Positions 57,817-60,311 of a stretch of 64,000 nt of DNA are shown piece after piece (position 1 is the first letter of the stretch; the number at the start of each line of letters is the position of its first letter). The DNA lies in NCBI GenBank assembly GCA_964555515.1, contig CAZKSJ010000002.1, positions 537 to 64,536 on the forward strand, read 5' to 3'. The notes beneath the pieces are model-generated. The model was not told the origin of the DNA. It was given only the letters and a program-made list of their open reading frames with translations, and searched no databases. The translations under genes were made by a program, and so were the position numbers. Source of the stretch: an uncultured Pseudomonadales bacterium (GTDB lineage: Bacteria > Patescibacteriota > Microgenomatia > UBA1400 > PJMF01).

Positions 57817-59247
57817 TTACTTTTCTATATGTTTAAGGTGTAACTCTGTCAACTGATCTGCTGATAACAAAGCTGGCGCATCCATCACCGCCGTTTTACC
57901 ACTAGAGGACATGGGGAAAGCAATCGCTTCTTTAAGCGAGGTTTCTCCCGCCAACAACATCACGATTCTGTCCACTCCCAAGGCAATACCGCCGTGAGGT
58001 GGCGTCCCCAACTCAAATGCCCTCAACATGTGACCCACGCTCGCTTCAATTTCTTCATCTGAATAACCCATGATGCGATAGGTAGCTTTGAGAAGCTCGG
58101 GTTGATGAGCTCTAATGCTGCCGCCACCTACTTCATATCCGTTGCAGATCAAATCGTACTGGCTGGTCAATATTTGCTCAATATTTTCTCCTTTGAGATG
58201 TTGTTCCACGTGCTCTGATAGAGGCATGCTAAAAGGGTTATGAGTAAATGTCCAACCTGATTTGCCATCGGCTACCTCCGCTCGATCTGCCTTATCTACC
58301 TTTTTGAAAAAAGGAAACTTAATCACCCAAGCAAAAGCAAGCAACCCGCTGTCTTTTTCAGATTCACTTCTCAAATCAAACTTATCCTGACCAAACTGCT
58401 CCATCGCTTGTTGATAGGTGAAAATGGGAAATGGTGTCTCCTTAATTTTTCCGCCAACAGCCTGGATAGATTCGATCATCATCTCTTCAACCGTGTTCAT
58501 CACTTGTTTTTGATCCACAAAACTCATCTCTAAATCAATTTGGGTATGCTCAAAACCACGGTCTGCCCGCAAATCTTCGTCCCGGACACATTTGGCCAAC
58601 TGAAAGTATCTTTCCACGCCAGCGGTCATTAATAACTGCTTATACTGCTGCGGGCTTTGAGGGAGGGCATAGAATTTTCCAGGCTGTAATCTGGCGGGCA
58701 CGACAAAGTCACGTGAGCCTTCTTTGGTCGACTTCGTCAAGATGGGTGTCTCCACCTCCACAAAATCTCTCTTATGGAGCGCCTCCCGAACTGCTCTTGA
58801 ATAATCCGATCGGAGGACTAACGTTTGGTGCATCCTAGCTCGCCTGAGATCAAGATAGCGGTACTGCAGTCGCACCTCTTCACTAATCTCATGGCCATCG
58901 GTATCCACCGGTATCGGCAGTTCACGCGCTGTATTTAGCACTTTGTACTCAACCACATCCACTTCAATGGTGCCTGTTGGTAAATCTGGATTGACCATTC
59001 GTTCCGGCCTTTTTTTGACTTCACCAATAATCTCCACCACCGATTCTGTGGTTAACTCACCCATCTTTTGATATCCCACCACCTGCACTTTACCTGTCCG
59101 GTCTCTTAAGTCAACAAAAGTGAGCTTACCATGATCACGCTTGGTATCCACCCAGCCAGCTAACTTCACCACTTGACCCACCATCTCTAAGGTGTCATCC
59201 ACCATGGTTCTCACTAATTCTTTTTTTTCTGACACATTTTCAGACAT
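57817..59247 (-). CDS. aspS: Aspartyl-tRNA synthetase, compact form lacking the GAD insertion.
   Basis: Class II motif 2 RDEDLRADRGFEHTQIDLEMSF matches the bacterial AspRS consensus. N-terminal OB fold. 476 aa instead of about 590. Confidence 0.85.
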   Translation of the reverse strand: MSENVSEKKELVRTMVDDTLEMVGQVVKLAGWVDTKRDHGKLTFVDLRDRTGKVQVVGYQKMGELTTESVVEIIGEVKKRPERMVNPDLPTGTIEVDVVEYKVLNTARELPIPVDTDGHEISEEVRLQYRYLDLRRARMHQTLVLRSDYSRAVREALHKRDFVEVETPILTKSTKEGSRDFVVPARLQPGKFYALPQSPQQYKQLLMTAGVERYFQLAKCVRDEDLRADRGFEHTQIDLEMSFVDQKQVMNTVEEMMIESIQAVGGKIKETPFPIFTYQQAMEQFGQDKFDLRSESEKDSGLLAFAWVIKFPFFKKVDKADRAEVADGKSGWTFTHNPFSMPLSEHVEQHLKGENIEQILTSQYDLICNGYEVGGGSIRAHQPELLKATYRIMGYSDEEIEASVGHMLRAFELGTPPHGGIALGVDRIVMLLAGETSLKEAIAFPMSSSGKTAVMDAPALLSADQLTELHLKHIEK

Positions 59248-59273: not shown

Positions 59274-59600
59274 ACAAAAACACCCTCCAGTAGCTAATTA
59301 CTAAATTTGCTTCCGGAGGGTCTCTTAAACTCTAAAAGACGGTACCACCTCTTGATTAACTTGACCAGCAATGACGGGCTTACCCGGATTGGTTGCGACC
59401 CCAACCACCTCAAACTTAAAAAATTAAGTTTTCCCACAGCGTTACCCATGGTCACAAGGGTTTTTTAAATTGTATCCGTCATTCTACAGCCAACAAGGTT
59501 GTTTGGCAAACAACCCTCATGTCAGATCTGTTTCATCTGACGAACTATATTGCCGACTTCTCATCATGGTTTCTGTACAACTCGCAGTATTGAATTACCG
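59274..59600 (-). promoter_or_regulatory. T-box riboswitch leader upstream of aspS.
   Basis: On the minus strand, AUCAAGAGGUGGUACCGUC (59338..59356) matches the T-box core GGUGGNACCG. A terminator ACCCUCC...GGAGGGU (59282..59321) with U-tract UGUUUUUG follows. The 5' terminator strand can instead pair with the T-box to form an antiterminator. A possible Asp specifier is GAC within AAUGACGGA (plus-strand 59478..59480). The 5' boundary is approximate. Confidence 0.6.
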
Positions 59601-59609
59601 ACTTACTGC

Positions 59610-59637
59610 TTGCTTCTACCCACTGAAGCGGTATAAT
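59610..59637 (+). promoter_or_regulatory. Sigma70-like promoter (TTGCTT, 16-nt spacer, TATAAT).
   Basis: Near-consensus hexamers with 16-nt spacing, read directly from the sequence. Predicted TSS is about 59644. Confidence 0.4.
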
Positions 59638-59643
59638 TCTGCT

Positions 59644-59773
59644 TTGGTATGTCATCACTACACATCTCTGCCACTGTTCAAATTAACCTTTTTAAGGTGT
59701 TTGGGGTTGTGGATTAAGTAATGTAATAAATAGCAAACAACAACCCCGCACCCAACAAACATGCGGGGTTTTT
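59644..59773 (+). ncRNA. Candidate small RNA or cis-acting leader of about 130 nt.
   Basis: Bounded by the promoter at 59610..59637 and an intrinsic terminator at 59743..59773. The only overlapping ORF (83 aa) starts upstream of the promoter. GGGGUUGU (59702..) could alternatively pair with ACAACCCC (59740..), which overlaps the 5' terminator strand. Confidence 0.3.
59743..59773. terminator. Rho-independent terminator hairpin CCCCGCA-N11-TGCGGGG followed by T7.
   Basis: 7-bp GC-rich stem with TTTTTT on the plus strand. On the minus strand it is followed by UUGUUGUUUG, so it could also terminate recJ read-through. Confidence 0.6.
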
Positions 59774-59774
59774 T

Positions 59775-60311
59775 ATGACTAAAAGCTCCACTTGTGGAGC
59801 AAGTAGAAACAATTTTATTAATAGGTCTAATTTATTTATGTCAAAACGATCATCCGAAATCCCAGCTCAAATCGATCCTAAAGTGGTACAAGATTACATG
59901 GAAATTGTTAGTCAACTTAAGTCTGGTTTTCTCAGCCCTCCTTGCATGTTATCTTTACTCTATTTTCAAACAGTCCATCAATACGGCAATGGAACTGATG
60001 AACTCTCGAGTGAGCTGGAATCAATCGAGAGTGGGGACATCGCCCCGGGTCTTGATGATCACACTAGATACATTATTTCTCAAATTGGATATGCATATCT
60101 TATTGTTGGACAAGAATTGCACGATGCTTACATTTCTGAATTTTATCAATTATCAAATAATGGCACTCATCTCAATGGTGGCGGCGAATCACTGCGCCAA
60201 AAATATATTCAAGAAGGAAGAAGATTACTTGGGAATATCTTATCTGACGATGAAAGAAGGTTTTTATTCACCGCTTATCAAGCATTATGTATATCTTTGA
60301 GCACAACCTGA
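59775..60311 (+). CDS. Hypothetical acidic protein (178 aa; real start may be Met22 at 59838).
   Basis: Protein-like composition in this frame. The overlapping alternative frame (59794..60300) is low-complexity and L/I/K/N-rich. The 3' end overlaps the recJ 3' end by 34 nt (convergent). Confidence 0.35.
   Translation: MTKSSTCGASRNNFINRSNLFMSKRSSEIPAQIDPKVVQDYMEIVSQLKSGFLSPPCMLSLLYFQTVHQYGNGTDELSSELESIESGDIAPGLDDHTRYIISQIGYAYLIVGQELHDAYISEFYQLSNNGTHLNGGGESLRQKYIQEGRRLLGNILSDDERRFLFTAYQALCISLSTT

Follow-up and report, generated by a model that had tools for sequence, protein, structure and literature searches.

A probable T-box riboswitch of minimal architecture upstream of aspS in a member of the Patescibacteria

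Does the DNA upstream of aspS, the gene for aspartyl-tRNA synthetase (AspRS), encode a T-box riboswitch in an uncultured bacterium of the Patescibacteriota, and if so, which tRNA would it read? The window, i.e., the whole stretch of DNA that was analyzed, comprises 64,000 nucleotides (nt; 64 kb) of contig CAZKSJ010000002.1 (GenBank assembly GCA_964555515.1, positions 537 to 64,536). aspS lies on its minus strand, and a first-pass annotation made from the letters alone had placed a T-box riboswitch with a candidate Asp specifier codon at 59274-59600. Based on the results below, we hold with good confidence that the minus-strand leader of aspS is a transcription-attenuating T-box riboswitch of minimal architecture, working by the tRNA-dependent mechanism proposed here. 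Judged by the triplet in its specifier loop, its effector is probably uncharged tRNA-Asn rather than tRNA-Asp, which would fit a non-discriminating AspRS. All leader coordinates refer to the minus strand, and loci of relatives are denoted by L and a number.

The sequence elements of the 3′ domain were observed directly. The T-box core claimed in the first pass was found as read (AGAGGUGGUACCGUC, 59352-59338), and the proposed mutual exclusivity of two helices holds as well: the strand ACCCUCC (59321-59315) can pair with GGAGGGU (59288-59282), followed by GUUUUUG (59281-59275), or alternatively with GAGG (59351-59348) and GUCU (59340-59337), by which the 7-nt bulge UGGUACC (59347-59341) is left. 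The elements of the 3′ domain and the regulated gene are as follows.

59411-59407, minus strand: GAGGU, 3′ strand of the base helix P0, assigned as the covarying partner of its 5′ strand
59406-59387, minus strand: Stem II, short; GGUUGG (59406-59401), loop GGUCGCAA (59400-59393) and CCAAUC (59392-59387), from RNAalifold on an unfitted alignment
59386-59384 with 59377-59375, minus strand: Stem IIA, CGG with CCG, paired in 100% of alignment cells
59380-59378 with 59369-59367, minus strand: Stem IIB, loop AGC with GCU, a pseudoknot
59377-59372, minus strand: F-box CCGUCA, within the IIA/B pseudoknot (59386-59367)
59366-59352, minus strand: linker of 15 nt, no Stem III
59351-59316, minus strand: antiterminator (RNAalifold), with helix A1 formed by GAGG (59351-59348) and CCUC (59319-59316)
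59347-59341, minus strand: antiterminator bulge UGGUACC, 7 nt (RNAalifold)
59340-59320, minus strand: antiterminator helix A2 (RNAalifold), GUCU(UUUA) from 59340 with (UAAG)AGAC ending at 59320, loop GAGUU
59323-59281, minus strand: intrinsic terminator, stem CCCUCCGGAAGC (59320-59309) with GCUACUGGAGGG (59294-59283), extended by the pair A59321-U59282; overlaps the antiterminator at 59323-59316
59280-59276, minus strand: terminator U-tract (U5), 3′ of the stem
57817-59247, minus strand: aspS, the regulated gene, coding for a bacterial-type AspRS of 476 amino acids (aa) without GAD insertion, AUG at 59247

Conservation and covariation of these helices were likewise observed directly. From ten aspS leaders in an unfitted MAFFT alignment, RNAalifold without guidance returned Stem II, Stem IIA, A1, and A2 together with the 7-nt bulge, and compensatory changes were seen in 11 of the 18 predicted pairs. 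In an alignment of the 3′ domain from 18 sequences (alignment A2), 88.8% of the cells were paired vs. 76.4% in shuffles, and 13 pairs had double changes; none of 500 shuffles reached any of five measures, and slid partners paired at 26-48%. All six pairs of Stem II showed compensatory changes in this alignment, A1 was paired in 100% of the cells and A2 in 94%, with four out of four A2 pairs covarying. The loop of Stem II follows the consensus GGU-N(2-4)-AA. Stem IIB covaries between subgroups, being GGC/GCC in L004, GCGC/GCGC in L030, UUUGC/GCAAA in L075 and UAAGC/GCUUA in L066, and the F-box is identical to that found in the ileS T-box from Nocardia farcinica, for which a structure has been solved (87-CCGUCA-92; PMC7583486).

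When folded alone, the terminator reaches -22.1 kcal/mol and the antiterminator -8.8 kcal/mol. Since the terminator is much stronger than the antiterminator, which is the usual asymmetry of T-boxes, “off” would be the default state. A strong hairpin followed by five to eight U residues is present at the same place in every homologous leader. The bulge reads UGGC or UGGU in every aspS leader examined and is compatible with G73, the discriminator base of bacterial tRNA-Asn and tRNA-Asp.

Motif searches and covariance models were applied to the window. The sequence GGUGGUACCG occurs exactly once in it, and so does the exact 10-mer GGUGGNACCG; with one mismatch allowed, the 10-mer gives 10 matches vs. 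5.7 expected, and the motif alone is thus not significant. A covariance model built from 16 leaders (model R2, with the window and L201 excluded and RNAalifold’s own structure used) gave a single match in the 64-kb window (128 kb search space), namely at 59413-59316 on the minus strand with 63.5 bits and an E-value of 2.4e-17. Model R1 scored 82 bits on the window. A second T-box of the minimal class was not found in the 64-kb window by the searches with R1 and R2.

The leader RNA itself is probably shorter than first annotated. Its start would be set by a sigma-70-like promoter.

59509-59481, minus strand: sigma-70-like promoter, -35 box TTGCCA (59509-59504), 17-nt spacer, -10 box TAGAAT (59486-59481); 10 of 12 matches in a promoter scan

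Position and sequence of this promoter are kept in L201 and L217 (TTGCCA/TTGCTA...TAAAAT), and L001, L205 and L207 have analogous TACAAT/TATAAT boxes at the same distance. The window and L201 are 82% identical over 59513-59275, which includes promoter and leader, and diverge completely across 59602-59514. Because the conserved block begins at the promoter, transcription is predicted to start probably near 59474 and not at 59600. Of the region 59274-59600 claimed in the first pass, the part from about 59474 to 59275 therefore stands as the element, while 59475-59600 comprises promoter and non-conserved spacer rather than leader RNA. Two open reading frames (ORFs) overlapping the region, 59294-59455 on the minus strand (53 aa) and 59470-59721 on the plus strand (83 aa), were considered as coding alternatives and rejected: the window and L201 differ by indels of 1 and 2 nt, which disrupt every possible frame of the leader. 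Among the aligned leaders, the indels have lengths of 1, 2 and 3 nt, and consequently no reading frame is conserved.

The codon presented by the leader decides which tRNA it would read, and here the elements of the 5′ domain are needed.

59461-59457, minus strand: ACCCU, 5′ strand of the base helix P0, pairing with GAGGU (59411-59407) with one C·A mismatch
59456-59452 and 59433-59432, minus strand: kink-turn-like (K-turn-like) junction flanking the specifier hairpin, 5′ side UGUGA (UGA at 59454-59452), 3′ side GA
59451-59434, minus strand: specifier hairpin, constituting the whole Stem I; CCAUGG (59451-59446), loop GUAACG (59445-59440) and CUGUGG (59439-59434), minimum free energy hairpin of -5.4 kcal/mol
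59443-59441, minus strand: putative specifier triplet AAC (Asn codon), with the purine G59440 on its 3′ side
59431-59412, minus strand: inserted hairpin Hb, AAACUUAA-UUUU-UUAAGUUU; a hairpin at the same position in relatives

The first-pass annotation had suggested GAC as a candidate Asp specifier. This assignment had to be given up: none of the three GAC triplets of the region is located in the conserved, covarying loop, which carries AAC instead. By its sequence, the specifier of the window leader is thus AAC (Asn) and not GAC. MAFFT and RNAalifold over all leaders were unsuited to the 5′ domain due to variable insertions, and were replaced by an alignment of five sequences plus a parse by hand. 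In the former, an unfitted MAFFT alignment of the window, L201, L205, L207 and L001, the specifier hairpin is paired in 100% of the cells and all six pairs show double changes; its covariation score was matched by none of 500 shuffles, slid controls paired at 37-47%, and the loop is invariant as GU[A/G]ACG. The base helix covaries across leaders as well (ACCCU/GGGGU, UUCCU/AGGAA, AGCCU/AGGCU, AACGU/ACGUU, AGC/GCU, AAC/GUU), and its mismatch position in the window is a C-G pair in L201 and L217. The UGA...GA arrangement on both sides of the hairpin resembles, at the level of sequence, the GA motif of T-boxes.

A second line of evidence is the agreement between loop triplet and downstream gene, observed directly across genomes. 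Nineteen leaders were parsed by hand, each parse being verified as an exact substring of its locus, and 25 were counted in all; the downstream genes were named by tblastn with the AspRS of the window, and serS and trpS by NCBIfam. Among these 25 leaders, those of aspS show GAC (11) or AAC (5), those of serS UCC or AGC, two unrelated Ser codons (6), and those of trpS UGG (3). Since the triplet tracks the regulated gene, we take it to be the specifier.

Could GAC nevertheless be the specifier, with uncharged tRNA-Asp(GUC) as the effector? The regulated gene is aspS, 11 of the 16 homologous aspS leaders do show GAC in the specifier loop, and an alternative hairpin, CCCUU-GUGACC-AUGGG (59460-59445, -3.3 kcal/mol), could show GAC in a GU-RAC-N loop. 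However, this hairpin excludes the covarying one of -5.4 kcal/mol, L201 and L217 are unable to form it, and it was rejected since L201, L205 and L207 covary in the overlapping GUAACG hairpin. The GAC concerned (59453-59451) spans the junction between K-turn and stem, running from the K-turn UGA into the first base of the stem, and UGAC occurs at this place also in the AAC-type leaders L030 and L161. The other two GAC triplets (59524-59522 and 59480-59478) lie upstream of, or at, the start site predicted from the conserved promoter. In addition, five independent leaders have AAC at the homologous loop position. We therefore regard an Asp-specific T-box as improbable.

A leader with two inputs, presenting AAC or GAC and thus sensing either of two tRNAs that a non-discriminating AspRS would charge, tRNA-Asn or tRNA-Asp, appears just as improbable to us. 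In this case, it would be the alternative 5′ hairpin that shows GAC, or Hb in relatives. Indeed, the window has overlapping hairpins with the loops GUGACC and GUAACG, the first hairpin of L205 (2275-2310) shows GUAACG and its second UUCGACAA, and L217 and L218 carry GAGGACUUA in the second hairpin (alignment A5, columns 125-150). For Clostridium acetobutylicum, T-boxes of dual specificity have been reported (Saad et al., 2012, 2013, as cited in PMC4574755). On the other hand, the Hb loop has no GAC in the window (UUUU) or in L201, many members lack Hb, the alternative hairpin is unconserved, and nothing indicates that a codon at Hb would be within reach of a tRNA bound to the 3′ domain. A hairpin at the Hb position, with unconserved sequence, was found in the window and in L201, L217, L205, L207, L001, L209, L211, L200 and L162; L033 and most serS and trpS leaders lack it. 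Hb is A/U-rich and adjoins Stem II. It was also tried as Stem I and rejected, as its loop is unconserved and the hairpin is missing in many members. As a separate observation, the AAC-type leaders L205, L217 and L218, with GAC in the Hb loop, have Asn and Asp codons in tandem hairpins of one leader.

The preferred reading, a transcriptional T-box displaying AAC, implies the following mechanism. Transcription would begin near 59474, and the nascent leader would fold into the base helix, the K-turn-like junction and the 6-base-pair (bp) hairpin, whose terminal loop GUAACG would present AAC; the short Stem II and the canonical IIA/B pseudoknot would form next. Uncharged tRNA-Asn(GUU) would dock by its anticodon on AAC in the loop, and its free 3′-NCCA end would pair with UGGU of the 7-nt bulge, by which the weak antiterminator would be stabilized vs. 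the terminator and RNA polymerase would read into aspS. An aminoacylated tRNA could not make this 3′-end contact; the terminator would form and transcription would stop at 59280-59276.

An Asn triplet is cognate to aspS only if the AspRS is non-discriminating. The Asn codon before aspS would make sense if the enzyme also charges tRNA-Asn for the GatCAB route. In C. acetobutylicum, a T-box reportedly reads the status of tRNA-Asn and governs the AspRS of the indirect Asn-tRNA pathway; it is said to be a canonical long-Stem-I Firmicute T-box with two codons, located before an operon. The logic is the same as that proposed for the window leader, which differs by its minimal architecture, by one displayed codon and by aspS as the first gene. 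The link between a T-box and tRNA-dependent Asn synthesis has been described for C. acetobutylicum (Saad et al., 2012, as cited in PMC4574755 and PMC4206432).

As had been noted in the first pass, the T-box precedes an aspS gene without a GAD domain: Pfam recognizes only tRNA_anti-codon (PF01336) and tRNA-synt_2 (PF00152) in the 476-aa protein, and NCBIfam aspS_bact matches it with 505 bits in two stretches, skipping the middle of the 586-residue profile. The 120 best AspRS homologs are mostly 464-510 aa long and have the same two domains. Thus, a GAD-less AspRS is the norm for the clade and an ordinary part of the finding. By its AspRS, the window belongs to the Patescibacteria: the best species representatives are 58-73% identical and labelled Patescibacteria group or Dojkabacteria; homologs named Woesebacteria are 72-73% identical. 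A paralog of AspRS, such as an AsnRS, was not found in the window by tblastn with AspRS. As a side observation, two longer homologs (P0103 and P0109, 72-73% identity, 622-624 aa) contain an additional PF04073 domain (YbaK/aminoacyl-tRNA editing), inserted between the domains for anticodon binding and catalysis, in the region which holds the GAD domain in ordinary bacterial AspRS.

Several results weigh against this reading of the leader and have to be set beside the evidence in its favor. First, the Rfam T-box model RF00230, whose cmsearch had been proposed in the first-pass annotation as a check, with failure to be taken as refutation, gave no match: neither in the whole window at the gathering score (93 bits), nor at E ≤ 10 on 801 nt and on the 216-nt leader, nor at the gathering score on the loci of 20 relatives. 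A control batch of 20 metagenome contigs, all with the motif GGGUAAGCCCGU...GGUGGNACC, was scored with the same model; five canonical T-boxes were detected at 117-145 bits and none of 12 minimal leaders was found. The absence of a hit, though real, is therefore uninformative here, as the model misses the whole minimal class yet detects canonical T-boxes in the same batch. RF00230 depends on the long Stem I, which the minimal class lacks.

Second, the Stem I features named in the first pass are largely missing. The K-turn strands enclose no more than an 18-nt hairpin; the AG bulge and the distal loop (interdigitated T-loops) are absent, and the codon is placed in a terminal loop, not in an internal specifier loop. 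The specifier loop has 6 nt vs. 7 nt in many relatives, and the K-turn-like junction is interrupted by Hb and degenerate in L205, L207 and L033. Stem II of the window, a 6-bp hairpin, has no S-turn motif (AAGAAC/AGUAGAA), and Stem III is absent from the leader. According to a review, transcriptional T-boxes generally require a long Stem I with a distal elbow platform (PMC7583486, section 6.2); the leader would have to cope without this platform and without the S-turn.

Third, the bulge UGGU of the window could pair with a G73 discriminator by wobble only, and no genes for tRNA-Asn or tRNA-Asp were found in the window or the fetched loci, the only tRNA of the window being tRNA-Gln. Finally, the table of 25 leaders, in which 98 of 100 cells are paired vs. 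47 ± 5 in shuffles, is inflated by selection: the stems were chosen by eye as hairpins, and the 98% pairing is consequently biased upward. The unbiased parts of the specifier evidence are the match of codon to gene and the five-sequence alignment (A4).

Comparison with known T-boxes shows how far the leader departs from them. With the canonical type of Bacillus subtilis tyrS and glyQS it shares the T-box sequence, the antiterminator with A1, UGGNACC bulge and A2, the overlapping intrinsic terminator, the F-box, the IIA/B pseudoknot, a base resembling a K-turn, a purine directly after the codon, and an aminoacyl-tRNA synthetase gene as the regulated gene. The canonical type differs by its long Stem I, equipped with AG bulge, distal loop and elbow platform, none of which is present in the window leader, and in showing its codon in an internal specifier loop, whereas the window leader has a terminal 6-nt loop, a 6-bp Stem II without S-turn and no Stem III. 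The ultrashort-Stem-I T-boxes of actinobacterial ileS (Mycobacterium tuberculosis, N. farcinica; TBDB class II) likewise lack the elbow platform, combine Stem I, Stem II and IIA/B, and have the identical F-box CCGUCA. They are described as translational, however, acting by Shine-Dalgarno sequestration, and have a long, S-turn-bearing Stem II; in the window leader there is a terminator, the S-turn is missing and the codon is in a terminal loop. In ileS leaders such as L088 (CCGG-CUAC-GUCU-GUAG-GAAUCA-CCGG), for which an actinobacterial origin is inferred, a mini-hairpin sits above an internal loop whose 3′ side carries the codon. Since the window leader has the core features that define a T-box and lacks the class-defining features of either type, we consider it a new variant outside both described architectural classes.

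That it is a translational T-box or a decayed relic instead of an active transcription attenuator is very improbable: truncated-Stem-I T-boxes described so far are mostly translational, namely actinobacterial ileS elements which keep an S-turn-bearing Stem II (PMC7583486, PMC11297988), and switches without elbow contact are deemed kinetically ill-suited to transcriptional control (PMC7583486), but the competing helix here is a GC-rich hairpin with U5 and not a Shine-Dalgarno sequestrator, the ribosome-binding region from AAGAAAG to the AUG (59258-59245) lies more than 15 nt beyond the terminator and outside both helices with no Shine-Dalgarno sequestration seen, hairpin and U5-8 are found in all relatives, and strong covariation and 82% leader identity speak against a relic.

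To judge from these sequence comparisons, the T-box of the window is a genuine member of a minimal class without elbow contact that is seen, in patchy occurrence, in Patescibacteria. Whether Patescibacteria use a previously undescribed minimal transcriptional class, we regard as an evenly balanced proposition. In such a class, Stem I would consist of a K-turn-like base and an anticodon-loop-like hairpin kissing the tRNA anticodon, without elbow platform and often without S-turn or Stem III; it would serve aspS, serS and trpS, and in the window it would monitor tRNA-Asn charging for a non-discriminating AspRS. Long Stem II helices with the S-turn sequences AAGAAC/AGUAGAA do occur in L030, L037 and L075. 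No paper joining T-box riboswitches with the candidate phyla radiation or Patescibacteria was found in the literature searched, which is not proof of novelty. The use of TBDB’s truncated-Stem-I model was confined to Actinobacteria and to hits that the class I model (RF00230) had yielded before, and surveys based on RF00230 or TBDB would miss the minimal class entirely. Because RF00230 missed 12 of 12 minimal leaders and the truncated model of TBDB is limited in scope, T-box regulation in the candidate phyla radiation is probably undercounted.

A terminator-coupled T-box without elbow platform runs against the kinetic argument for that contact and, if functional, contradicts it; at about 145 nt, counted from the base helix through the antiterminator, the leader would offer a compact natural system for this question. 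Switching between GAC and AAC in aspS leaders may further serve as a sequence marker suggesting which tRNA limits AspRS demand in a lineage, and hence whether metabolically minimal organisms use the indirect route to Asn-tRNA.

How widespread is the leader among relatives? Among 80 species representatives of Patescibacteria, a regular expression detected T-box core, hairpin and U-run upstream of aspS in 12, and the covariance model found the leader upstream of aspS in 14; as it is present in only 14 of the 80, its distribution is patchy. The leader is also found in the closest metagenomic relatives, L201, L205, L207, L209, L211, L215, L217 and L218. That of L215 is identical to the window leader; AspRS identity to the window is about 84% in L201, L217 and L218 and 75-78% in L205, L207, L209 and L211. 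The motif GGGUAAGCCCGU...GGUGGNACC occurs in at least 120 metagenome contigs, canonical T-boxes among them.

Three independent Logan assemblies with identical or near-identical AspRS (L213, L214 and L216) all end 156-162 nt upstream of aspS, corresponding to about 59403-59409 of the window, near the start of Stem II. The common break point could stem from differences between strains or from difficulties in assembling the adjacent upstream A/U-rich hairpin.

Other T-boxes were met in the course of the comparison. The aspS leaders of Dojkabacteria (L010:2810-2935, L016:2830-2955, L013:2700-2820) share antiterminator and terminator and have a different 5′ domain, in which a hairpin with distal-loop-like sequence (AGAUAGUGAGAA / GAGAGUGUAAG) precedes AGUAGAA and GUGACA and the IIA/B pseudoknot is missing. 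Due to this difference, at least two architectures of aspS T-boxes exist within Patescibacteria. In L036 (2240-2440), a T-box with the bulge variant UGGCACA and the loop AUGACA is followed by an ORF of about 180 aa (...ITHGTDTM...), which lies between leader and aspS and is asparaginase- or GatD-like by eye; this arrangement suggests an operon linked to Asn metabolism. Further T-box cores with terminators are located upstream of other genes on Patescibacteria-like contigs (L154:6844 region, minus strand; L021:765-853), and several T-boxes per small genome seem likely.

A second conserved noncoding block, 59603-59784 on the plus strand, neighbors the aspS leader and is 74% identical to L201. 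It contains a TATAAT at 59632-59637 (plus strand), followed by an ORF of 22 aa at 59650-59718 (plus strand; MSSLHISATVQINLFKVFGVVD), which has counterparts of 22-24 aa ending in V-V-x or similar in L201, L205 and L207. The block ends in a strong plus-strand terminator (hairpin 59738-59776, GC stem and U6) about 60 nt before an ORF of 157 aa (ATG at 59838, plus strand) that has no Pfam match, and the sequence GGGGUUGUGG (59703-59712) is complementary to the 5′ strand of this terminator. Judged by these elements, the block looks like a leader-peptide attenuator or an unknown riboswitch for the gene divergent from aspS.

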